Source of the DNA: an uncultured Candidatus Poseidoniales archaeon
Lineage (GTDB): Archaea > Thermoplasmatota > Poseidoniia > Poseidoniales > Thalassarchaeaceae
Assembly: GCA_964645485.1 (NCBI GenBank)
Contig: CAZXZO010000002.1
Location: 62,478 to 126,477, forward strand
DNA length: 64,000 nucleotides
Direction of reading: 5' to 3'
Shown: piece by piece, positions 35,038-49,358 of the stretch
Position numbering within the stretch: the first letter of the stretch is position 1
Layout: each line of letters starts with the position of its first letter
Position numbers and translations under genes: made by a program
The notes under the pieces: generated by a model
What the model was told of the DNA's origin: nothing
What the model saw: only the letters and a program-made list of their open reading frames with translations
The model's database searches: none

Positions 35038-36321
35038 TTACCAATTGCAAGATTGGAGGATTTTTTGGCCCTGCATATATGGTTGTAGAACTACTGGAAT
35101 CTGCACCAATCCATCTTCCATTTGATTTTGCTCAATTATTGCTACCAATGCTCTGCTAGTAGCAACCGCTGTTGAGTTCAAAGTGTGGACAGCCTCATTT
35201 CCATCCGCAGTTCGATACCTCATTCGCAGTCGATTGGCTTGATAATCGGTGCAGTTCGAACATGACACTACTTCTTTGTAGGCTTCAACTCCAGGAAGCC
35301 ATGCTTCTAAATCATATTTTTTAGCAGCCACTGTCCCCATATCCCCAGTACAAATATTGACAATTTCATAATGTAGGTCTAAGGAATTCCAAAGTTCAAC
35401 ACAGTTAGTGAGTAACTCTTCGTGTAAATCCCATGAGTCACCAGGTTTGCTGATGATTATTTGTTCAATCTTGGTGAATTGATGAACTCTCCATATTCCC
35501 TTATCAGATTGTCCATGGGCGCCCACTTCTCGTCTAAAACAGGGCGAAACACCAACCATTCTCAGAGGCAGCATTGATGGTTCAATTACCTCATCCATGA
35601 ACATAGCAGTAAGCGGGTGTTCACTTGTTGCTATAGTGTAGAAACCTTCTGGCTGAACATTATACATCACTGTTTCAAAATCACCCAAGTCTGTAACTCC
35701 TTCGTACGCCTTGCGGTTCATCATCACGGGGGGTTGTACGAGTGTGTATTCTCTTGAAGTGAGGAAATCTATGGCGTATTGTTGTAAGGCTAATTCCAGC
35801 CGTGCTAGGTCTCCTTTCAGAAAGTAGAAGCGGCTTCCAGCAATCTTAGCAGCTCTAGGTAGGTCAACCCATTTATTCATGTCAACGAGTTCATTGTGGG
35901 TTTTTGGGTCAAATGAAAAAACTTGCTTTTGACCATGTTTACTGTGTTGTGTATTACCACTCTCATCCTCCCCGACTGGAACACTATCGTGGAGAATGTT
36001 TGGAATCTTCATTCTCAAACTGTCTCGGTTTTTGATGAGATCATTTGATTGAATTCCCAACTCATCTATCTGTGCACCTATTGTTGCTACTTGGGCTAAG
36101 ATTTTCTCAGCCTCTTCATTGTTGCCAGTTTTTTTTGCTTCGCCAATCCCTCTCGCGGCCACATTTCGCTCACGCCTAAGTTGGTCAGCATCATAACGAG
36201 CCTTCTTCCAAGCGTCGTCAAGACGAATTACCTCATCGATGCTGTCATGAGGAATCCCTCTCTTGTCGTGGTCAGCACGCACAATATCTGCGTGGTCCCG
36301 AAACATCTTGATGTCTAACAT
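35038..36321 (-). CDS. serS: Seryl-tRNA synthetase
   Basis: MLDIKMFRD N-terminal coiled-coil arm, plus class II motifs FRRE...GIWRVHQF and TLNSTAVATSR. Confidence 0.95.
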   Translation of the reverse strand: MLDIKMFRDHADIVRADHDKRGIPHDSIDEVIRLDDAWKKARYDADQLRRERNVAARGIGEAKKTGNNEEAEKILAQVATIGAQIDELGIQSNDLIKNRDSLRMKIPNILHDSVPVGEDESGNTQHSKHGQKQVFSFDPKTHNELVDMNKWVDLPRAAKIAGSRFYFLKGDLARLELALQQYAIDFLTSREYTLVQPPVMMNRKAYEGVTDLGDFETVMYNVQPEGFYTIATSEHPLTAMFMDEVIEPSMLPLRMVGVSPCFRREVGAHGQSDKGIWRVHQFTKIEQIIISKPGDSWDLHEELLTNCVELWNSLDLHYEIVNICTGDMGTVAAKKYDLEAWLPGVEAYKEVVSCSNCTDYQANRLRMRYRTADGNEAVHTLNSTAVATSRALVAIIEQNQMEDGLVQIPVVLQPYMQGQKILQSCNW

Positions 36322-36370
36322 TTGCCTTCACCCTGCTGATTCATATCATCCTCTTGAACCCACTCATCAT

Positions 36371-38581
36371 CTAAAATATTGTAATACCGAAGGAAACTGA
36401 CTCATATCCTAATGCGATAAATCCAGTGATTAAATATCCTAGAATACTACCTCCATTGAGTAAAGGTAACCCTGCTTGAGGGCGGCCCATCGCAACGTAC
36501 CCCATTAGAGCTAAGTAACCAAGAAGACCACCAATAAGCGAGCCTAATGCCACAAACATAGGATCACTCAATCCCATGATAGTTCCACCAGATGGCAGGA
36601 ATGTCAGGGCTGATATGACTAACATGCCAGGGAAAATGACATCACCTAATCCCATGAATAACGCATCACCGGTATTTTTCTTAGGGGCCGGGCGGGGCGG
36701 TTCTGGAGGAGGCGCTTTAGCACCACTCTTCGGTCCACTATCCTTCATTGGGGCAACGGGTGGCCCATCCATCTTACTGATTGTGTCTTCACCCTCGTCA
36801 AGGAAAGAGTATCCCTTATCTTGAGGGGCGACTAACAATATTGGGAGTTTGAGCCCTATCATCGTGTCCGCAAGGTCAAGCATGTGCTTCGATTTGTAAA
36901 CCGCATACCAATCATAAATTGCGGCTACAATCATGAAAATCAGAATTAATGTTGGAACAAAACTTACCCCAATAATGGTAATTACGCCAGCACCAGTTAA
37001 AATTCCGGTAGTGTTCACTATGTACCATTCGGGCCTGATTGTAAGAGCAATCATCAGTATAGTGGAAGCGACTAAAGCGACTATTTGTGACCAATAAATT
37101 GGTAACCAGTATCCAGCCGAATCTTGGAGAATTATTGCAGGGTCATTCACAGGCGTAGCAATTATTGCACTTTGAGTGGTGTTTACAGTATAGGTTGTAA
37201 GCACACCATCTTCGATATCGATTTTATCCCAAGCAGGAACATCGATAGTGTGGATTATCATGTCGATTGACCCGTCTGAAACAGGTCCATCAATGATTAG
37301 ACTCTCAACCATTACCCAACCTGAAAACATCCGAGTTTCTCCTCCGGATGCAATCCAAACATCAACTCTTCCATCATGTTGGTCGTCAGCAAGCATTATG
37401 CCTTGGATTTCAGAATTAAATGCATCACGTTCGTTGAATTTAATATGTTCTTCAACATTCATTTCCACACCATCCCAGACAAAGCCGTAGACTTTTCCTT
37501 TCTCAGTTCCTAACATCAACAAACTGTCAGTTGAGTTTTCACTCCACCATTTGTATCCACTCCATGGAGAGTGGCCAAAGGCCGAGGCAGTGAATGCGTC
37601 TCCTGAATTTGGGGTGACTTGCCAAAGAATTGACGCATTAAAATCTCCAAATTCACCGGTGTGTGGCTCATCTGGAATATCAACGATTCCAGCCCAACCA
37701 AATGAGACCAATAGTAGAGTGTTATCATTGAGCATACTGCCCTGCATAAATTCCCCTGAGGTGAATTGTTCGGGTAGGTTGTAGGCCCAACTATGGCTTG
37801 GAATATCAGGGTGGAAGGGGTCAACCTTATGGATCACATTGTTGTAGATAGCCCAGTCATTTTCTTGCGAAGAAAAACCAGCAACGCAGGTGACATCTGT
37901 ATGGTTTGTGAGTGGGGTGCCATCAGACTTGTCTAAAGATTGCCACCGATTTCCATCACACATTACATATGAGTCAAGATTGTCAACAATCGCGGTTCCT
38001 AAGGCTGAAAAACCACCATCCCGATAGAGAGAGAAATCCCACTCCACCTTTGCAGATTGCCCTCTTTCTAATCCACTTGGTTCACTCATTTTGATTAGAT
38101 GAGTTCCGTTGGAGACTATGAAAGAAGAAGGTTCGTAATCAACGAAGAGAAAATCAGCGTCAAGTTCCATTTCATCACGATATTCGACTATCGGTTGTGC
38201 TTCATCCATAGCAAAAGATGCTAGAGGAATCATCGCATAGGAAAGAGAAATCCAGAGAACAAACAGCACTCCCCATTTGATAATTGATTGGAGTCCTCTT
38301 TTGGCTAACCAGATGATAAAAGCAGTAAATACTAGAATCAGAATAAATTCCAAGCCGATTAAACCTACTTTAGTGGTTCCTGCCTCACCAAATGCTCTCG
38401 CTTCTGGCCTATCCCAGAACGGCTGAATGTAGATAGCAAGCAATATTGTGCCAACAAACATCGCGCCCATAGTAGTCATTGAGCGCCATTGGTCAGCCAT
38501 CAAAGAAAGGATGTTTGCAAAGCGACTCTCACCGGTCATGACTACGGCGAGAGTGAAAACCCATTTGAAAGCGAGGGTCAC
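36371..38581 (-). CDS. Presenilin/signal-peptide-peptidase family (A22) intramembrane aspartyl protease with a large inserted ectodomain
   Basis: AAIYDWYAVYKSKHM (YD), FMGLGDVIFPG (GxGD), and RPQAGLPLLNGG (PAL-like). About 370 non-hydrophobic residues sit between the third and fourth helices. Confidence 0.8.
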   Translation of the reverse strand: MTLAFKWVFTLAVVMTGESRFANILSLMADQWRSMTTMGAMFVGTILLAIYIQPFWDRPEARAFGEAGTTKVGLIGLEFILILVFTAFIIWLAKRGLQSIIKWGVLFVLWISLSYAMIPLASFAMDEAQPIVEYRDEMELDADFLFVDYEPSSFIVSNGTHLIKMSEPSGLERGQSAKVEWDFSLYRDGGFSALGTAIVDNLDSYVMCDGNRWQSLDKSDGTPLTNHTDVTCVAGFSSQENDWAIYNNVIHKVDPFHPDIPSHSWAYNLPEQFTSGEFMQGSMLNDNTLLLVSFGWAGIVDIPDEPHTGEFGDFNASILWQVTPNSGDAFTASAFGHSPWSGYKWWSENSTDSLLMLGTEKGKVYGFVWDGVEMNVEEHIKFNERDAFNSEIQGIMLADDQHDGRVDVWIASGGETRMFSGWVMVESLIIDGPVSDGSIDMIIHTIDVPAWDKIDIEDGVLTTYTVNTTQSAIIATPVNDPAIILQDSAGYWLPIYWSQIVALVASTILMIALTIRPEWYIVNTTGILTGAGVITIIGVSFVPTLILIFMIVAAIYDWYAVYKSKHMLDLADTMIGLKLPILLVAPQDKGYSFLDEGEDTISKMDGPPVAPMKDSGPKSGAKAPPPEPPRPAPKKNTGDALFMGLGDVIFPGMLVISALTFLPSGGTIMGLSDPMFVALGSLIGGLLGYLALMGYVAMGRPQAGLPLLNGGSILGYLITGFIALGYESVSFGITIF

Positions 38582-38605
38582 AAGAGAGAGCGTGGGCGGG
38601 TATCT

Positions 38606-39958
38606 GTGAGTGATGTACGAGAGTGGTTTACCGGGCTGAAAGTGCTTGGAATGCGGCAGAGTCTTGAAATAACTGCCGTTTTATTGTCCCGTCTTGGGAT
38701 GCCTCATCTCAAATTTCCATCAATCCATGTTGCAGGAAGTAATGGCAAAGGGACAGTTTGTTCAATTCTATCAAATTGTTTGTCACTAGCAGGTGTGAAC
38801 AGTGGATTGTTCACCTCCCCACATCTCTGTTTTGTAGAGGAGAGAGTTAGGATAGATGGGGTACCAATCTCACCCACAATTTTTGACCTATATCTTGAGA
38901 GAATTCGAGATGCATCTCAAGTTGAACCAGTTACAATGCCGACATATTATGAGGCCACTTTTCTAGTTGCGATGTTGGCATTTGAGGATGCGGGAATTGA
39001 CCGAGCCGTAATTGAGACTGGACTTGGTGGTAGACTTGATTCAACGAGATTAGTACATGCTGATTGTTGCGTACTTACTGAGTTGGCACTCGAACACACC
39101 GATGTCTTAGGCGAAACCCTTGCTGAAATTGCTGGAGAGAAAGCAGCAATTGCTCGACCAGGCGAAGTTTTTCTTGCCAAATGGACTTATGACGCTGGAG
39201 CAAGACAAGCGATTGAAGATGCAGTTGGTGACCACAAACTAGGCTATTGGTGGAGGCCAGATAGAGCCTTATTAGTTCGATTTGATGATACTGATAAGAG
39301 CCATCGCCCAATTTCGGAAATTGCCACACCGAGCGGTTGGTCACCATACCAAAAGGAAGCCTCAATTCTCGCCCATGCAACATTAACTCTTCTCGAATTG
39401 TACAAGCCTGCTAGGATGATGGCTAGTGCTCTCCTTCATACTGTCTGGCCAGGGCGTGTCCAATGGCTTGAACATGAAGAGGTTCCAATTCTCATAGACG
39501 CGGCCCACAACCCGAGTGGAATGCAAAAAATCTGCACACAGTTACGTGTTCAAATGGAGAGCGATGAAGCTCCAACCCCAGGGGTTGTGCTGTTAGGCTG
39601 CACATCCCAAACAGATTTAGTTGGATTTCTCAATCCTTTAGTGGAACTACTAGTCGAAGGAGAGGTAGGTCATGTTGTGGTCACTGAGCCACAGAAAGGA
39701 AGGCGACCGGCTATATCAACAAAGGAATTGGCTGCTGAATTAGAAGCACAAGGAGTGCCAGCGGTAATTGAGGAGGTCAAACATCCTGCAGAAGCACTGC
39801 AAAGAGCACTGGAATTGTCAAAGCAAGATGCCAACCAACCAGTTCTAGGAATTGGCTCAATTTACCTGGTGGGGAATTTACTTTCTGCACTTGGTCTTGA
39901 TACAATAGAAGCAATGACAACACTCCGTCCCTCCGAGGAAGGAGTCCATTGGACTTGA
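38606..39958 (+). CDS. folC: Folylpolyglutamate synthase/dihydrofolate synthase (Mur ligase family)
   Basis: IHVAGSNGKGTVCS P-loop. I chose the GTG at 38606 because the longer ORF-track start (38489) overlaps the divergent gene. Confidence 0.85.
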   Translation: MSDVREWFTGLKVLGMRQSLEITAVLLSRLGMPHLKFPSIHVAGSNGKGTVCSILSNCLSLAGVNSGLFTSPHLCFVEERVRIDGVPISPTIFDLYLERIRDASQVEPVTMPTYYEATFLVAMLAFEDAGIDRAVIETGLGGRLDSTRLVHADCCVLTELALEHTDVLGETLAEIAGEKAAIARPGEVFLAKWTYDAGARQAIEDAVGDHKLGYWWRPDRALLVRFDDTDKSHRPISEIATPSGWSPYQKEASILAHATLTLLELYKPARMMASALLHTVWPGRVQWLEHEEVPILIDAAHNPSGMQKICTQLRVQMESDEAPTPGVVLLGCTSQTDLVGFLNPLVELLVEGEVGHVVVTEPQKGRRPAISTKELAAELEAQGVPAVIEEVKHPAEALQRALELSKQDANQPVLGIGSIYLVGNLLSALGLDTIEAMTTLRPSEEGVHWT

Positions 39959-44187: not shown

Positions 44188-47100
44188 TCAATCGTCATCT
44201 TCTTCATCATATTCGTCATCAAATTCATCATCATCGTCAAACATTAGGTCGTCATCAAACAATTCAGAACGATTCGTGAGAGCTCCCTGCATGCTAACAT
44301 ATGCAACAATAGGTAGAACAATCATAGCGATAATAATTCCAATTACAGCGAGTAAGTTTTGGCGAGCGCCTTCAACCCACCCCATTCCAAATGCGTAGTC
44401 AACAGACACTCCTACACTAGCACTATTATCGGATTCGTCAACTTCCGAAATTTCGTTTTCTGTGTCAACGATTACGATTACTCTGTCAACCCCTTTCTCA
44501 GCAACCCATGTCGCAGAAATAGGAATTGCTTCATCAGCGATACCGTTCAGTTTCTGTGTGGCGAATGGTTTTTCTGAATCACCAGAATAGAATCCAACTA
44601 CAAACCCGGAATTAGTTGAACCACCGAGATTAGAAATCCATGCTGTAACCTCCACTTTGTCACCATTAGCAACAATTTCTTTATCTGCCGAAATTCGTTC
44701 TACAGTCAATTGTGCTCCTAGTGCTCCAAACCGAATCCATTGTAGTTCGTGGTCACCATTTAGGTCAACAGGTTCTCTCACTGGGTCACTCTTCGAGTTT
44801 CCTTCAGTGGCAAGTGGGTTGCCAGCACTGTCCCAACCTTCAATCCAGAATCCGACTTCATAATCCTGAAGTGGTGGATTCATTCCGTCTCCAATCAAGT
44901 CCACAGTACCTGTCCAAGTGATTGCTTGTCCTTCTTGAAGCATCCCCAAAAGGGAGGACCCTGAGGAAATTTGGCGCTGATTCTCATCTCGCATTAACCA
45001 GTGTACCCACTGCGGGCTTCCTGAAAGGTCTGCATCTTCCCAGCCAATGAATTCTACTGGTACTTCAGTTAGAGCAGTCTTGTTAGAAATGTCAATGACA
45101 TCAATCGGTGTTAGCCTTTCAAGAACTCTAGGTGGAGCGTGATCGACCTTAACTTGCAAAGTTGTTGAAACGGTGTCGCGAGTCATATCCTCACCTCTGC
45201 CAGGAATATTTCTCACTCCTGCAAGGAAGGTTCTAGTTTCACTAGAAGCAAGTGTGGTGGCGGCCCCAAGAGGGACTTCTAAACTAAATCCACCATCGTC
45301 AGTTAGGCTTCCATCGGACCAGTATTGTACTCCATCGAAGACTTCAACTGTAATTCCCAAATTTTTCGGTGCGGGTACATCGCTACCTTCGTAAACCACT
45401 CTACCAGACCAGCGCAAACGGTCGTTAGGCACAACCCGGCTTCCATCAAACACGGGGCCAACTCTTGGCTCTTGTACATCTTCTACGGTGTAAGTTTGAG
45501 CGTCTAGTACCAAGTCATTCTCAATTCTGAAAGTGTGCTCTGTGAAGATTTCCCTACGTGGTTCAGTACTGCCTAATTGAGTGAATTCTAAGGCGATATC
45601 TGACAGATCAGCATCAGGCCAGTCCCATGAAAATGCGAAAGCAAATGTGACCTTCACCCAAGGTAAACCTGTTTCGTTAGTAGTAACAATTCCTCCGCAT
45701 GATTCATCCAGTATATTATTACAAGCTGGTGAAATTTCAAGGTAATCATCGTCAGTCCAAAATGTAGCATTATTTCCACTGAAAGATAATCTCTGTTGGT
45801 CTCTCTCTGGATCAGGTCCTTCAAAGTCAAAAATTAAAGAAATATCAGTGAAGTCAATCAAGCCGTTGGCATCAACAAGGCCGAGTGTGATATATTGAGT
45901 GGTTCCCGCAAATGCTCTTTCACCATCTTCGTGACCTGCCCAATGTAATCCGGTGAATACCGAATCCATGTCTTTTCTTGTTCTGTAGGTTACCAAGTCA
46001 TAATCAAAACCGGGGCCATCTGAACGGAGTAGCGCATTGCCTGCAACATCAGTTCCGGTGACGTAATAAGAGACTCTTGCCATGTTTGGATTATTTGAAT
46101 CATCAATATATGCGAAGAACAATTTGTCAATGTCATCAGTCATATTTGTCATGGTTTGATTGACGTATTCGCCTGCATCAGCATTGCCATTACGGTTAGA
46201 GTCATGTTCTGCTTCTATCCAGTAGTGAAGAGTCAATTCTTCAGGTGCGCCAATTTCATCCTGAATTCTTATGCGCACCGCTTGGTCTTCTTGCCCTGCC
46301 TCGTAGGCATTGTCAAGAGGAGTTGCTTCTATCAGAGTTGGACTTGTGGCATCAACTCGGATGGTTCGTTGCCATGATTGGTTGGTTGAGAGGACTTTGA
46401 GAGGGTCTCTTGGGTTGTCAATCACGACCTCGTAGAATACACCGTCTGGGCGGTCAATTGTATCTACAGGAACTGGAATAAAGAACTCTCCATATTGGTT
46501 TGACCGGTCTTTGGCTTGTACGAAATCACCTTCTGTAGTTCGCTTGACGACGGCTACATCGAAGGTAGAGTCTAGCGGTGCATCTTGAGTTCCGTCATAC
46601 CAAATTGCTCCTTGGAAGTACAGCGTTTCACCCGCTTTAATCCACTCATAATTTGGGACATCATCATGGTGCACAGCACCGTCATTGTCTCTGACTGCCA
46701 ACCATCCAAGTCCATAGGATTGGTTCACTCGGATTCCTGGAGCGTTACTTGCCCGTGATGATAGAGACATTGGTGAGAGGCCTTGGTCATCAGTGCAACT
46801 GACTCTGAATCCAACATTGTCCTGTTCAATGAAATTAGAGGTGACGCGGAAAGCCCAATGAATTTCTAAAATACCATTACTGTTATTGGTCCACGTTGCA
46901 GAAGCATCTGGAATTATCCAATCTTCGGGGTCGTCATCAATAAGGGTTCCATCACTGTTCCAAGTTAAGGAAGGAGTTTCACTTGCAGGGTATGCTAAGA
47001 AATCAAGAGTTGCAGTAGATATGCCTCCGGCATCTTCACCAATTACGTGTCTAGTTACAACTTCATAGGTGTCAATTGTTTCATGCAACACCATAGTTTC

Positions 47101-49245
47101 ATCCCAACTAATGTCAAGATTGACTGTTTGCATGACGTATGTAATTGAAAATGAATTTATCACCACTTTACCAGAAGACGACGAAAGAATCTGGATTGGG
47201 ATCAGTTCTGTTCCAGAGCCTGTATCTGGAATAGCATCATTTAGGGCATTAACAATTGAACTTCCTGATGTGCCAGATGCAGTTACCGTGGAGAGTAAGG
47301 CGTTGGTATGAGTCCACTCAGCACTGCCATCACTGCCGATGTCTAATTTCACATTTTGGGGAGCATTGGAGTAAAGAGCGACTTGGAAGTCATCTACAAT
47401 TGGACTGTATGCATTGGCGCCACCAGCGTAAAAGTAGAAACAGAGGGTGAGATATGACAGAGTAGTCGGGAAGTTTACCGTTTGTCCCGGTGTATTCAAA
47501 GTCGTAGATGTCCCCGATGTGCAACTGCTAGATGTAGTCCACCTGACTGATAATGAACTACCACCTAATTCTGTTGAGTTCCACCATACTTGGGCTGCTA
47601 CAGGCCCATTTGAGCTAGAACCAAAATATGGGGTTCGCATCCACATTAATCCTGAAGGTGCATAAGAGCCGGTGTAACCTAGGGCAATCGTATCTATTAA
47701 AGCAGAAACGTTGCTGTTTGTGCTGTTGAGATATGCTCTCCATCCAAGTTGGGTTCCTGAATTTGTGAAAGTTACTCTTGTTCCGATTTGTGCTTGCTTC
47801 CAAGTCACTCCACCATCGTTTGTGACTTCATATTCTACCGATGTTCCTGTTGGCTTCCAGGAAATTGCTGCAGTTAATGTCAAGTCCGGAGTTGTTCTAG
47901 TTGCAGTGATTGCGGATGAAGTTATTATTGTAGAAGTGGTGCTAGGTGTTCCCATTGAAGAAACAGTTGACCTTCCATTGGTGAAGATTTTGTGAGAACT
48001 TCCACTTGGGCATTGGGTGTTGTAATAACAACTCCATGCAAGAGTCCCATCCGCTGTGCCTTCCAGTCCGAAGTGAGCATGATTTGGGAACAAAATATCT
48101 CCTTGGTGTTCAGGCCATGCCCCACCTCGGAGGAAAACCGAGTGGTAGTTTTTGGCCTTACAGTTGTTATTGCTTGAGTATGTACAGTAAACATTCACAG
48201 TTACTCTGTCGCCAGCAACATCGAGTCCTGCTGGTTGACCTTGACCACTTGGAATCATCATCAACAATTGTGTTGAAAGTGCTTGAGCGGGGCTTGAGCG
48301 GTTGACATTCCAAAGGTAGTAATTGTAATTTCCACTCACATAGCGGGATGCTACAACATACATTTCATTGTCAACTGGGTCAAAAGCAACACCTCCAATG
48401 TTGTATGATGAACCATACCATGCCTGATTACATGACCAACTGGTCCCTGCAGAATTGACTGTCCACTTAGCGATGTAGTTGTAATTCCAACTTGTTGTCC
48501 AAATCGTACCATTTCCATCACTGGTGATGTCAGAAAGATATGCCATGGTAGAGGTCGTACAACTGTTGAATGAAAGGCTCACAGTGCCTATTTGGGCGCC
48601 AGTAGTTGTGTTATAACTCCTAATTGATGGGGTGCTGTAAAGACTGGTGCTTGACCATTGTGCGACAAAAGTTTTGCTTCCTTGGTAAGCTACAGGGCCA
48701 GCATAATTCCAAGAGCCACCAGAATACGCTGAATAACCCTGAGTAGTTGCTCCCACTAAATCAGAATCAGCCAAGCCAATAGATCCACCTGTTGTGTTGT
48801 GGACTGCATTTGGTGCACTGGAAATATCACTCGTTCTCGTTAAAGCCCAACTCGCTTCACTTTGCATTTCTCTTAGGGATGTTTGATCGTTACCAACATC
48901 AATAGTAGTTCGATAATCATAAGAGAAGTATGGGACATTCATAGGCCCATCTGTTGTTGAAGGACCGCCAAAGTGTGTATTGGTGCTTGCATTAGCCCAA
49001 GTAGTTGTTGAAGGTTCTCCAGTGATAGAGAAACTTGCTGATGTTACTTCTGCTCCATAAGGCATGTTTACTCCAGCAGTTCCACCATTCCCTTGACCGG
49101 CAAAGGTGTGGGAAAAACTGGTAGTGCCATCAGCAAATTGGGTTTCAGTAGTTGCCGCGATTGCAAATGATAGCGTTGTAGACAACAGCATTAATCCGGC
49201 CAAGAAAAACGAAGTGAATTTGATTTGGTTGTTGCATCTAAACAT
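44188..49245 (-). CDS. Giant (about 1,685 aa) secreted surface protein with C-terminal TM anchor and poly-acidic tail
   Basis: Signal peptide MFRCNNQIKFTSFFLAGLMLLSTTLSFAIAA (start moved to the ATG at 49245). S/T/N/G/W-rich with many N-x-S/T sequons. TM helix LLAVIGIIIAMIVLPIVAYV. Tail DDDEFDDEYDEEDDD. Confidence 0.85.
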   Translation of the reverse strand: MFRCNNQIKFTSFFLAGLMLLSTTLSFAIAATTETQFADGTTSFSHTFAGQGNGGTAGVNMPYGAEVTSASFSITGEPSTTTWANASTNTHFGGPSTTDGPMNVPYFSYDYRTTIDVGNDQTSLREMQSEASWALTRTSDISSAPNAVHNTTGGSIGLADSDLVGATTQGYSAYSGGSWNYAGPVAYQGSKTFVAQWSSTSLYSTPSIRSYNTTTGAQIGTVSLSFNSCTTSTMAYLSDITSDGNGTIWTTSWNYNYIAKWTVNSAGTSWSCNQAWYGSSYNIGGVAFDPVDNEMYVVASRYVSGNYNYYLWNVNRSSPAQALSTQLLMMIPSGQGQPAGLDVAGDRVTVNVYCTYSSNNNCKAKNYHSVFLRGGAWPEHQGDILFPNHAHFGLEGTADGTLAWSCYYNTQCPSGSSHKIFTNGRSTVSSMGTPSTTSTIITSSAITATRTTPDLTLTAAISWKPTGTSVEYEVTNDGGVTWKQAQIGTRVTFTNSGTQLGWRAYLNSTNSNVSALIDTIALGYTGSYAPSGLMWMRTPYFGSSSNGPVAAQVWWNSTELGGSSLSVRWTTSSSCTSGTSTTLNTPGQTVNFPTTLSYLTLCFYFYAGGANAYSPIVDDFQVALYSNAPQNVKLDIGSDGSAEWTHTNALLSTVTASGTSGSSIVNALNDAIPDTGSGTELIPIQILSSSSGKVVINSFSITYVMQTVNLDISWDETMVLHETIDTYEVVTRHVIGEDAGGISTATLDFLAYPASETPSLTWNSDGTLIDDDPEDWIIPDASATWTNNSNGILEIHWAFRVTSNFIEQDNVGFRVSCTDDQGLSPMSLSSRASNAPGIRVNQSYGLGWLAVRDNDGAVHHDDVPNYEWIKAGETLYFQGAIWYDGTQDAPLDSTFDVAVVKRTTEGDFVQAKDRSNQYGEFFIPVPVDTIDRPDGVFYEVVIDNPRDPLKVLSTNQSWQRTIRVDATSPTLIEATPLDNAYEAGQEDQAVRIRIQDEIGAPEELTLHYWIEAEHDSNRNGNADAGEYVNQTMTNMTDDIDKLFFAYIDDSNNPNMARVSYYVTGTDVAGNALLRSDGPGFDYDLVTYRTRKDMDSVFTGLHWAGHEDGERAFAGTTQYITLGLVDANGLIDFTDISLIFDFEGPDPERDQQRLSFSGNNATFWTDDDYLEISPACNNILDESCGGIVTTNETGLPWVKVTFAFAFSWDWPDADLSDIALEFTQLGSTEPRREIFTEHTFRIENDLVLDAQTYTVEDVQEPRVGPVFDGSRVVPNDRLRWSGRVVYEGSDVPAPKNLGITVEVFDGVQYWSDGSLTDDGGFSLEVPLGAATTLASSETRTFLAGVRNIPGRGEDMTRDTVSTTLQVKVDHAPPRVLERLTPIDVIDISNKTALTEVPVEFIGWEDADLSGSPQWVHWLMRDENQRQISSGSSLLGMLQEGQAITWTGTVDLIGDGMNPPLQDYEVGFWIEGWDSAGNPLATEGNSKSDPVREPVDLNGDHELQWIRFGALGAQLTVERISADKEIVANGDKVEVTAWISNLGGSTNSGFVVGFYSGDSEKPFATQKLNGIADEAIPISATWVAEKGVDRVIVIVDTENEISEVDESDNSASVGVSVDYAFGMGWVEGARQNLLAVIGIIIAMIVLPIVAYVSMQGALTNRSELFDDDLMFDDDDEFDDEYDEEDDD

Positions 49246-49358
49246 AGGCGGTCCCCTAGGGACCGTTAGGGGTACCATTTCAACCCTTTGCACTTAGAAC
49301 AAATCCAATTACACCGAAACTGTATCAGTCAGGAGGCCTACGAGCGCATGGGATTGAG

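Follow-up and report, generated by a model that had tools for sequence, protein, structure and literature searches.

The window, a 64,000-nucleotide stretch of DNA from an uncultured Candidatus Poseidoniales archaeon of Marine Group II, encodes the single presenilin-type membrane protease of this organism, a presenilin homologue (PSH) of peptidase family A22, and it is almost certain that we are dealing with one gene in which a beta-propeller is inserted between the third and the fourth transmembrane (TM) helices. Since the catalytic core is intact, the protein is predicted to be an active protease that cuts type-I (N-out) anchors within the bilayer, an activity on type-I substrates that has been shown for MCMJR1, the PSH of Methanoculleus marisnigri (PMC9282858, PMC10679502). 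The best overall explanation, which we consider about evenly balanced between right and wrong, is that of a PSH with an extracellular propeller deciding which membrane proteins reach the active site.

Identity of the gene and its membrane core

The whole gene lies on the minus strand at positions 36371..38539, with a TAG stop codon at 36371-36373, and encodes 722 aa. The open reading frame is uninterrupted over 36371..38581 (-) and counts 736 aa from the GTG at 38581; the true start is likely the ATG at 38539, because the closest homologues (P0002-P0004) begin with MTGESRF or MTSESHF. The residue numbers of the initial annotation follow the 736-aa frame (YD 556-557, GLGD 644-647, PLLNGG 706), and its interval 37106-38206 corresponds to residues 126-492 of that frame, that is, to the insert alone. 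Compact PSHs are about 280-340 aa long, a size that is typical and not defining.

The assignment to the A22 intramembrane proteases made in the initial annotation is borne out by the NCBIfam equivalog for PSHs (NF041679), which reached 221.3 bits (cut-off 125) over two stretches, and by Pfam PF06550 (163.9 bits against a cut-off of 23.9; E 7.6e-48), which covers residues 496-722 only (profile positions 89-279). In the search of the genome, profile positions 2-88 and 91-279 were matched about 1.1 kb apart, in the same frame and with no stops. Furthermore, 966 database proteins are matched (E<=1e-3); of the best 120, nearly all are 680-790 aa long and aligned at 98-100% coverage, on contigs of up to 3 Mb. 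These full-length matches exclude a misassembly or a frameshift, and the N-terminal part, which the initial annotation had feared might belong to a separate gene, is part of the same open frame. The neighbourhood consists of housekeeping genes (folC, serS), with no dedicated operon.

Nine TM helices are predicted, and the AF2 model arranges them as three long helices before and six after the hydrophilic insert of about 370 residues, as had been read from the sequence at the outset. The N-terminal membrane part, TM1-TM3, spans residues 15-111 of the 722-aa protein (38207..38497 (-); AF2 helices; profile positions 2-88), and its TM2-TM3 loop, WLAKRGLQSIIKW, is placed in the cytoplasm because it is positively charged. 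Downstream of the insert, TM4-TM6 and the TM6a helix (36854..37093 (-)) carry the PEWY motif and the catalytic YD (36911-36916). They are followed by the Lys/Pro-rich cytoplasmic TM6-TM7 loop (36662..36853 (-)), in which lies the sole stretch modelled with low confidence; in the Marine Group II (MGII) forms this loop exceeds that of the non-MGII PSHs by 28-36 aa. TM7-TM9 (36395..36661 (-)) contain the catalytic GLGD (36641-36652) and the PAL-equivalent QAGLPLLNGG (PLL at 36458-36466), so that the six C-terminal helices hold the full A22 signature, as initially annotated. YD, GLGD and QAGLPLL are invariant across 50 homologues, the last as the Q, G, L, P, L and L of the PAL-type motif. Moreover, YD and GLGD align with the catalytic motifs of the PSH in PDB 4HYC, which was matched by the profile at E 8.6e-47 and in which QAGLPPLNGG stands opposite QAGLPLLNGG at the start of TM9; Foldseek matched 4Y6K_B at 26% identity.

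Fold, conservation and sidedness of the inserted domain

The insert comprises residues 112-482 (371 aa; 37094..38206 (-)) between TM3 and TM4, is all beta and contains five N-x-S/T sequons. The AF2 model, built with 50 homologues (mean pLDDT 84.4, pTM 0.75), has about 30 strands between the three and the six helices; the pLDDT of the insert is about 90, with most 10-residue blocks at 85-97, and the insert is thus modelled as a folded domain, not as the disordered segment that had been envisaged as a possibility. The best Foldseek matches are all beta-propellers (BamB, Atg18, BBS7, DDB1-BPB and EMC1; TM-score 0.4-0.57), and the best target-normalised TM-scores (0.51-0.57) come from seven-bladed ones. 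The number of strands and these matches indicate a beta-propeller, probably with seven blades.

At the sequence level, the observation that the insert carries no recognisable motif stood up to an HMM search, since no Pfam family matched the insert alone even at E<=10. In particular, no intein or endonuclease signature was found at this threshold, and the FG-GAP and integrin-alpha-type repeat HMMs (PF01839, PF13517; BBS7/ITFG2) were likewise unmatched. A phmmer search with the insert against 1.84 billion representative proteins reached only long PSHs, besides P0224 and P0227, and for this reason the insert can be traced to no donor family by sequence. P0227 is a 111-aa fragment, and P0224, a MucBP-repeat protein, was set aside as a spurious match due to low-complexity TxT repeats. 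The best-conserved motif of the insert is an FG-GAP-like blade loop, LADDQHDGRVDVWI (37352..37393 (-)), which aligns with FG-GAP blades of the non-MGII inserts. It holds the single near-match (DDQHDGRVD) to the cation-binding loop D-x-[DN]-x-D-G-x-x-D, a loop missing from the other blades, and no ligand- or Ca-binding signature was detectable in the insert beyond it. Identity averages 28% in the insert compared with 56-66% in the TM core; as the length (333-390 aa) and the fold are kept despite this divergence, the insert appears to be under selection.

Several features bear on the side of the membrane on which the insert lies. Across the 50 homologues, the TM2-3 (+2.4), TM6-7 and TM8-9 loops are rich in K+R, and the TM5-6 loop, the TM7-8 loop and the C-terminus are free of them, a charge distribution that fits the N-in/C-out orientation of presenilin as predicted by the positive-inside rule. 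K+R make up just 4.3% of the insert, whose net charge is about -45 across homologues, and its sequons number 1.4-1.7 per 100 aa, where five cytoplasmic proteins encoded in the window have 0-0.5. The propeller also has a conserved Cys pair, C194 and C218 (37886..37960 (-); C181 and C205 in the 709-aa numbering), of which one is invariant in the 50 homologues and the other is kept in 88% of them; the Cys counts of the insert are even, and a disulfide between the two residues is likely. From the charge distribution, the sequons and the Cys pair, we regard the propeller as very probably extracellular, in accordance with the extracytoplasmic location first proposed and against a cytoplasmic one, and it is probably glycosylated and disulfide-bonded.

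Distribution of the propeller and of a giant surface protein

The propeller-bearing layout occurs in hundreds of Poseidoniales proteins, namely in all the members checked of one family (f2) and in part of the family of the window itself, Thalassarchaeaceae (f1). Compact PSHs of about 300 aa are the norm elsewhere, as the initial annotation stated: in 401 Thermoplasmatota genomes, most of the contiguous matches listed sit in open frames of 276-430 aa. The suggestion that the architecture is unusual holds only with respect to the characterised PSHs: it is standard in most Poseidoniales, and a survey of A22 homologues found insertions at the same site also in other Thermoplasmatota. The literature searched contained no description of a PSH that carries an ectodomain or a propeller, although the survey of archaeal A22 proteases by Raut et al. 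2021 (Proteins 89:232) may mention long forms.

Close relatives with no propeller are found in a clade of small-genome Thalassarchaeaceae genera (g4, g5, g6, g7, g9 and g12), whose compact orthologues occupy the same locus, with folC diverging from the PSH gene and serS following the latter in the same orientation. They share the MGII-specific core features and the long tree stem and group with the long forms at 100% support, but about 12 residues link TM3 to TM4 instead of 369, and this short loop falls exactly at the insertion point; in some g4 members, about 50 hydrophobic residues take its place. In a rooted tree of 26 rows the base of the MGII clade is a polytomy, which does not show the compact forms nested within the long ones. 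We infer from taxonomy, and not from the gene tree, that the propeller was lost in the compact clade, since long forms occur in both families and compact ones in one clade of one family. The compact orthologues evidently work with no propeller, which is therefore dispensable in some cells.

Long PSHs of other Thermoplasmatota (f35, f37 and f43; P0121-P0199) carry a propeller of 300-390 aa at the identical column of the core alignment, and AF2 again gives seven blades between TM3 and TM4. Some of these proteins come from MAGs labelled Methanomassiliicoccales or Thermoplasmata, and they are annotated just as PSH or "presenilin-like A22 family membrane protease". Different from the MGII insert, which has none, their inserts bear Pfam signatures of the FG-GAP/BBS7/ITFG2 type (Beta-prop_BBS7 at 27.4 bits, cut-off 27; FG-GAP_3 at 25.8 bits). 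The phmmer search of the 1.84 billion representative proteins with the MGII insert did not reach them, and an hhalign comparison of the inserts only gave 92% probability over one blade only, out of register. The colinear alignment of the inserts obtained with whole profiles was rejected as evidence of homology, because the flanking TM parts force colinearity. The long forms do not group together in the core tree, where the non-MGII long PSHs are not sister to the MGII clade; an AU test did not reject a single clade of all long forms (p=0.137).

The initial annotation had proposed looking for co-variation with neighbouring single-pass surface proteins, and one such pattern was found. A gene 6 kb from that of the PSH (44188..49293 (-)) encodes a giant type-I surface protein of 1,685-1,701 aa that is hypothetically a partner or substrate; it carries a signal peptide, a single C-terminal TM anchor and a poly-acidic tail. 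It belongs to the giant surface proteins of Poseidoniales, which have a conserved GWxDxxRxNPL motif, a TM anchor and an acidic tail. The giant protein is present in 18 of the 18 f1 genomes with a long PSH, in addition to the window's own, and in all 37 f2 genomes; it is absent from the 22 genomes of f1 genera with a compact or presumed-compact PSH (g162 being unchecked), and one of 43 f3 genomes contains it, as a weak partial match. In two compact genomes the syntenic block is intact except for its gene, which is deleted. This co-presence and co-absence of giant protein and propeller across the class, new here, is suggestive and is the sole hint at function obtained; it amounts to one or two events and has almost no statistical weight, since it reflects one gain and one loss, the latter in a streamlined clade (genomes of 1.2-1.6 Mb) that lost many genes. 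It is possible to speculate that the neighbouring giant proteins are clients of the PSH. In a more specific and distinctly doubtful version, the propeller would be a receptor for their juxtamembrane region and the PSH would cut their anchors, releasing or recycling them, with a joint gain at the origin of MGII and a joint loss in the streamlined Thalassarchaeaceae.

Possible roles of the propeller and comparison with known systems

A role of the propeller in substrate selection or gating is inferred with a probability that we place slightly short of even. The short outward TM3-TM4 loop of an ordinary enzyme would be replaced here by a folded, acidic propeller of about 370 residues on the extracellular face, directly above TM2 and TM3; its placement over the substrate cavity follows solely from the chain joining the outer ends of TM3 and TM4. 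TM2 and TM3 are among the helices lining the substrate cavity in complexes of gamma-secretase with its substrates (PDB 6IYC, cited in PMC9282858) and likewise in a substrate-bound model of PSH (PMC9282858). From this position, the propeller could bind juxtamembrane or ectodomain parts of membrane proteins or, alternatively, sterically shut out long ectodomains, and it would be a one-chain counterpart of the role that nicastrin has for presenilin.

A rather unlikely alternative is that the propeller serves for docking or scaffolding (as an anchor to the S-layer or surface canopy, or as a means of oligomerisation or complex formation), so that it positions the enzyme and does not choose its clients. 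The nearest structures include BamB and EMC1, propellers that scaffold the membrane-protein machines BAM and EMC, but these likenesses are generic propeller matches at TM-scores of 0.4-0.57 and convey no functional information. The fast-evolving surface of the propeller, with its 28% mean identity, is what contact with fast-evolving surface proteins would produce, and its co-presence with the giant surface-protein family would suit a scaffold too; on the other hand, the insertion lies where TM3 and TM4 end on the outer side, beside the substrate-binding helices and not at a peripheral terminus, and its site is identical in several lineages.

We consider it very unlikely that the propeller senses an external signal, such as Ca2+, a peptide or a sugar, and thereby turns regulated intramembrane proteolysis on or off, which would make the protein a one-component signalling protease. 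In favour of a sensor, propellers of the FG-GAP/PQQ type that lie outside the cell often bind Ca2+ or small ligands, the insert conserves one near-canonical D-x-x-x-D-G-x-x-D loop, and the MGII forms have an extended TM6-TM7 loop in the cytoplasm. However, no ligand-binding family was found in the insert (Pfam, E<=10), the FG-GAP-like loop occurs in one blade only and is degenerate in the MGII consensus (ADCCxGGxNDLWV), and no gene for a transcription factor or an anti-sigma-like substrate lies nearby. The chance that the insert is not a functional ectodomain at all, and is an assembly or frameshift artefact, an intein or mobile insertion or a disordered cytoplasmic loop, is negligible. The Pfam match limited to the six C-terminal helices and the weak N-terminal match taken alone (24 bits) could raise such a suspicion, which is countered by the conserved open frame with its 966 matches, by a confident all-beta fold contiguous with both TM parts, by an insert composition that is that of an outside domain and by the orthologues whose short TM3-TM4 loop lies at the exact point of insertion. 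An intein or mobile element, in particular, was rejected because the insert is modelled as a propeller, matches no intein or endonuclease signature in Pfam and is conserved within the mature chain.

The reading in which the propeller selects substrates touches on a question that gamma-secretase has made central, that is, how presenilins choose their substrates; the human enzyme is hard to study because it is a four-subunit complex. The archaeal model PSH is not known to have a natural substrate, and it lacks an ectodomain. The PSHs described here provide a natural control, with same-locus orthologues that cleanly lack the domain and other lineages in which another propeller occupies this site, so that the role of an ectodomain for presenilin becomes directly testable with recombinant proteins. 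Through its co-distribution, the giant type-I protein offers a first concrete candidate for a substrate that a PSH would cut in nature. If it were indeed a client, an archaeal presenilin homologue would for the first time be paired with a natural substrate system, and the PSH would be a single-chain model of how an ectodomain guides presenilin-type proteases in the choice of substrates. In the surface ocean, Marine Group II archaea rank among the most abundant archaea, which makes the protein relevant to the building and turnover of their cell surface.

Among the known systems, the closest is MCMJR1 (PDB 4HYC, 4HYD, 4HYG, 4Y6K; MEROPS A22), which has the same nine-helix core, the YD and GxGD motifs and a nearly identical QAGLPxLNGG before TM9, and which, like the PSHs considered here, works as a single chain and requires no other subunit. 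MCMJR1 is 301 aa long, its TM3-TM4 junction consists of a few residues (chain ~100-104) in contrast to the 371-residue propeller, and its TM6-TM7 cytoplasmic loop is about 30 aa shorter. The eukaryotic SPPL2a, SPPL2b and SPPL2c (A22B) are also GxGD proteases with a glycosylated extramembrane domain of their own on the non-cytoplasmic side. Their luminal PA domain is N-terminal, about 150 aa long and of a different fold, whereas the extra domain is internal here; no PA domain was matched in Pfam, and PF04258 (A22B) scored 20.2 bits, below its cut-off of 23.3. Furthermore, the topology of SPP/SPPL is inverted relative to that of presenilin and PSH, and these enzymes cut type-II substrates. Searches of Pfam, PDB sequences and Foldseek gave no similarity to nicastrin, APH-1 or PEN-2, and the likeness to gamma-secretase (presenilin with these three subunits) is one of functional analogy only, in that a presenilin-type catalytic subunit lies beneath a large extracellular domain. 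The extracellular domain of nicastrin hinders substrates with long ectodomains; it sits on a subunit of its own, which crosses the membrane once and does not have a propeller fold, whereas the ectodomain of the PSH described here is part of the protease chain itself.

A presenilin homologue core with a predicted outer domain between TM3 and TM4

The presenilin homologue (PSH) is encoded by a single open frame on the minus strand, from 38581 to 36371, which counts 736 aa from a GTG codon. Since the N termini of the nearest database homologues (P0002 to P0004, 83 to 90% identity) read MTGESRF or MTSESHF and match the ATG at 38539, the gene was taken as 36371..38539 (-), 722 aa. A folC-like gene starts on the opposite strand about 60 bp beyond the PSH start, and the two genes are therefore divergent. 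In the numbering of the 736-aa frame, which is that of the initial annotation, we confirmed the catalytic motifs YD (556 to 557), GLGD (644 to 647), and PLLNGG (from 706), and the interval proposed there for the feature, 37106-38206, corresponds to residues 126 to 492, i.e., to the insert only.

The Pfam family PF06550 covers residues 496 to 722 only (profile positions 89 to 279, E of 7.6e-48), and the NCBIfam PSH equivalog NF041679 matches in two stretches with 221 bits versus a cut-off of 125. The genome profile search detected only one PSH locus (assembly of 1.94 Mb, 82% complete), with positions 2 to 88 and 91 to 279 in the same frame, separated by a stop-free segment of about 1.1 kb. Furthermore, a profile of 50 homologues matched the solved PSH of Methanoculleus marisnigri (4HYC/4HYD/4HYG/4Y6K, E of 8.6e-47), whose YD, GxGD, and QAGLPxLNGG motifs align with those of the window PSH, whereas the alignment breaks at chain positions ~100 to 104, its short TM3-TM4 junction.

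The insert extends from TM3 to TM4 over 366 to 371 residues and, in line with the initial remark that it has no recognisable motif, gave zero Pfam matches at an E of ≤10. The AlphaFold2 model built with 50 homologues (mean pLDDT 84.4, pTM 0.75) presents three helices, about 30 strands, and six helices; the 10-residue blocks of the strand region are mostly at pLDDT 85 to 97, and the insert is thus predicted to be folded, not disordered. The sole low-confidence stretch lies within the Lys/Pro-rich TM6-TM7 loop. Searched against the PDB with Foldseek, the membrane part retrieved PSH 4Y6K and the insert retrieved beta-propellers, with BamB (9.9e-9) followed by Atg18, BBS7, DDB1-BPB, and EMC1. The best target-normalised TM-scores (0.51 to 0.57) belong to seven-bladed targets, which, together with the strand number, suggests that the modelled insert of Marine Group II (MGII, Poseidoniales) has seven blades.

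The membrane side was read from the model helices and from the loop composition of 50 homologues. Lys and Arg are concentrated in the TM2-3 (net +2.4), TM6-7 (9.7 K+R), and TM8-9 (+1.4) loops, whereas none occur in the TM5-6 and TM7-8 loops or at the C terminus. This pattern is that of the presenilin orientation, with the N terminus in and the C terminus out, which places the TM3-TM4 insert outside. Moreover, Lys and Arg make up 4.3% of the insert, whose net charge is about -45. Its N-x-S/T sequons number 1.4 to 1.7 per 100 aa, versus 0 to 0.5 in five cytoplasmic proteins encoded in the window, and its Cys residues occur in even numbers, including two positions 24 residues apart, of which one is invariant and the other 88% conserved. 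The extracytoplasmic location initially proposed is in line with loop charges, sequons, and the Cys pair, all of which fit a predicted extracellular, glycosylated, and disulfide-bonded domain. Separately, the cytoplasmic TM6-TM7 loop (36662-36853, -) is Pro/Lys rich and partly predicted to be disordered, and in MGII PSHs, long and compact alike, it is 20 to 36 residues longer than in other Thermoplasmatota. Taken together, an intact PSH core carrying a folded outer propeller, attached to TM3 and TM4 at their outer ends, is strongly supported.

Distribution of long and compact forms

At an E of ≤1e-3, 966 scored database proteins match the PSH. The best 120 of them, from Poseidoniales (Thalassarchaeaceae, 'MGII/III euryarchaeote') on contigs of up to 3 Mb, are nearly all 680 to 790 aa long with a coverage of 98 to 100%. 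Among homologues the insert ranges from 333 to 390 aa, with a mean identity of 28% versus 56 to 66% for the membrane parts; conservation within it is highest at the Cys pair, at some Trp and Gly positions, and in the loop L-A-D-x4-G-x2-D-[LV], which in the window reads LADDQHDGRVDVWI and resembles the FG-GAP cation loop. When the insert alone was searched with phmmer against 1.84 billion representative proteins, 14 of the 16 matches at an E of ≤1e-3 were long PSHs (the propeller-bearing form) with the same location, and one was a 111-aa fragment. The remaining match, a MucBP-repeat protein, was discarded as spurious. At the level of sequence, the MGII domain is confined to this protease.

We surveyed 401 Thermoplasmatota genomes by profile matches, with follow-up of selected loci. 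Most families show a contiguous match (positions 2 to 280) in open frames mostly of about 280 to 430 aa, which bears out the initial statement that archaeal presenilin homologues are compact. In f2, a second family of the window's order, all five genera opened (g13, g14, g15, g16, and g17) have long PSHs in frames of 718 to 811 aa, and the remaining genomes with a match give the same weak, mostly split profile pattern. The window's own family, f1, contains genera with long PSHs (g1, g2, g3, g8, g10, and g11) and genera with a contiguous match at positions 2 to 279, hence compact (g4, g5, g6, g7, g9, and g12; genomes of 1.2 to 1.6 Mb), where about 12 residues occupy the propeller position. In f3, the sister order within the class, the PSH is compact.

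Compact f1 PSHs are flanked by folC and serS, as are the long ones, share MGII-specific core features with them, and join the long MGII PSHs in one 100%-supported clade with a long stem of 1.57 changes per site. On the f3-rooted tree, whose MGII base is a polytomy, f2 long and f1 compact PSHs form one clade each and f1 long PSHs form three groups. Since both families have long forms and compact ones are limited to a single clade of f1, the most parsimonious scenario is a propeller gained before the Poseidoniales radiation and cleanly lost once inside f1, with which the gene tree is compatible without proving it. The resulting pair of long and compact orthologues represents an unusually good natural control.

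In two compact PSHs of genus g4 (L057, G181:C53; L058, G342:C17), the former propeller site is filled by about 50 hydrophobic residues, part of which resembles a TM4 duplicate (SLYRYPE, then LLHIFPEWY); two added helices would keep the topology. One MAG contains two compact PSH genes on separate contigs, each between folC and serS (L054, G339:C45; L059, G339:C43), probably reflecting two strains binned together (3% contamination) and not a duplication.

Surveying A22 homologues for similar insertions, as initially suggested, revealed long PSHs of 670 to 760 aa in at least families f35, f37, and f43, and about 70 more database proteins of 600 to 760 aa, some of which come from MAGs carrying the label Methanomassiliicoccales or Thermoplasmata. 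Their inserts (300 to 390 residues) occupy a core-alignment column identical to that of the MGII insert but, different from the latter, bear FG-GAP, BBS7, and ITFG2-type Pfam signatures. The AlphaFold2 model of one of them, P0121 (pLDDT 80), again places a propeller from TM3 to TM4, with ITFG2, BBS9, and a seven-bladed beta'-COP domain as the nearest structures (TM-scores up to 0.74). Profiles of MGII and non-MGII inserts align over one blade with 92% probability; in the core tree long PSHs are not monophyletic, but monophyly is not rejected by the AU test (P = 0.137). A single old insertion that was lost many times, transfer of the long allele, or repeated insertion into a permissive loop may each account for the long forms. 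Some PSH proteins of 454 to 750 aa (P0134, P0210, and P0214) have records labelled '[Eubacterium] cellulosolvens' or 'bacterium' and are probably mislabelled or contaminating archaeal DNA.

Gene neighbourhood and a giant type-I surface protein

The order of divergent folC and PSH followed by serS is conserved in both Poseidoniales families (window 35038-39958; loci L047 and L048). PSH and serS are 46 to 55 nt apart, and PSH and seryl-tRNA synthetase may be co-transcribed. These neighbours are housekeeping genes, among which no dedicated partner gene was found.

A giant gene (44188..49293, -) is located 6 kb from the PSH, separated from it by folC and by genes for a dCMP deaminase, a small kinase, and an Lhr-type helicase. 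Its product (1,685 to 1,701 aa) combines a signal peptide with a single C-terminal membrane anchor and a poly-acidic tail. Such a type-I topology is of the kind cut by presenilin-type enzymes. Full-length orthologues (43 to 90% identity; e.g., G258:C9:57122-62113 and G037:C1:1932153-1937255) occur in every long-PSH f1 genus sampled (18/18 genomes and the window's own), and all 37 f2 genomes have a match, nearly always full length. The gene often shares a contig with the PSH, at a distance of 3 to 8 kb. At an E of ≤1e-10, the protein was not found in any of the 22 genomes of f1 genera with compact or, for g162, presumed-compact PSHs, and in f3 it gave a weak partial match in 1 of 43 genomes. 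Two compact genomes preserve both flanks of its site (serS-PSH-folC-...-kinase-Lhr-[gap]-orf280-signal peptidase I-M50 protease-Hjc), but the giant gene itself is cleanly missing between Lhr and orf280; this block of ~18 kb thus lost the 1.1-kb propeller segment and the 5.1-kb giant gene as separate deletions. The C-terminal ends of twelve orthologues and the window's own protein conserve a GWxDxxRxNPL-like juxtamembrane motif and the acidic tail, together with a basic stop-transfer residue and a TM anchor in which a Pro (f1) or a Gly (f2) is retained.

Covariation with neighbouring single-pass surface proteins, suggested initially as a check, is seen in that the giant gene tracks the propeller. 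The co-distribution amounts to one gain and one loss, the latter in a clade whose streamlined genomes have shed many genes; it is a lead, not evidence of a functional link, and the giant protein is only a candidate client. In one compact genome (G057:C5) its place is occupied by a 444-aa secreted protein (L083:8795-10126, -), unrelated to it, with thrombospondin-type-3-like DxDxDGxxD calcium-binding repeats.

Possible role of the propeller

PSH by itself cuts type-I substrates, such as APP C99/C83, and its TMD3 contacts the TMD6a element, which stabilises the substrate (PMC9282858). Long PSHs are annotated in databases only as PSH or 'presenilin-like A22 family membrane protease', and a full-text literature search, with the survey of Raut et al. 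2021 outside its coverage, retrieved no description of an ectodomain- or propeller-bearing presenilin homologue. The architecture is real, well conserved, and apparently undescribed for a well-known enzyme.

In the leading, though tentative, reading, the propeller would govern entry to the active site, either by binding or by excluding ectodomains. A docking or scaffold module appears rather unlikely, a ligand sensor for regulated proteolysis is improbable, and an artefact or non-functional insert is hardly credible. Control of active-site access would find its counterpart in gamma-secretase, where the large nicastrin ectodomain over presenilin restricts substrate entry.
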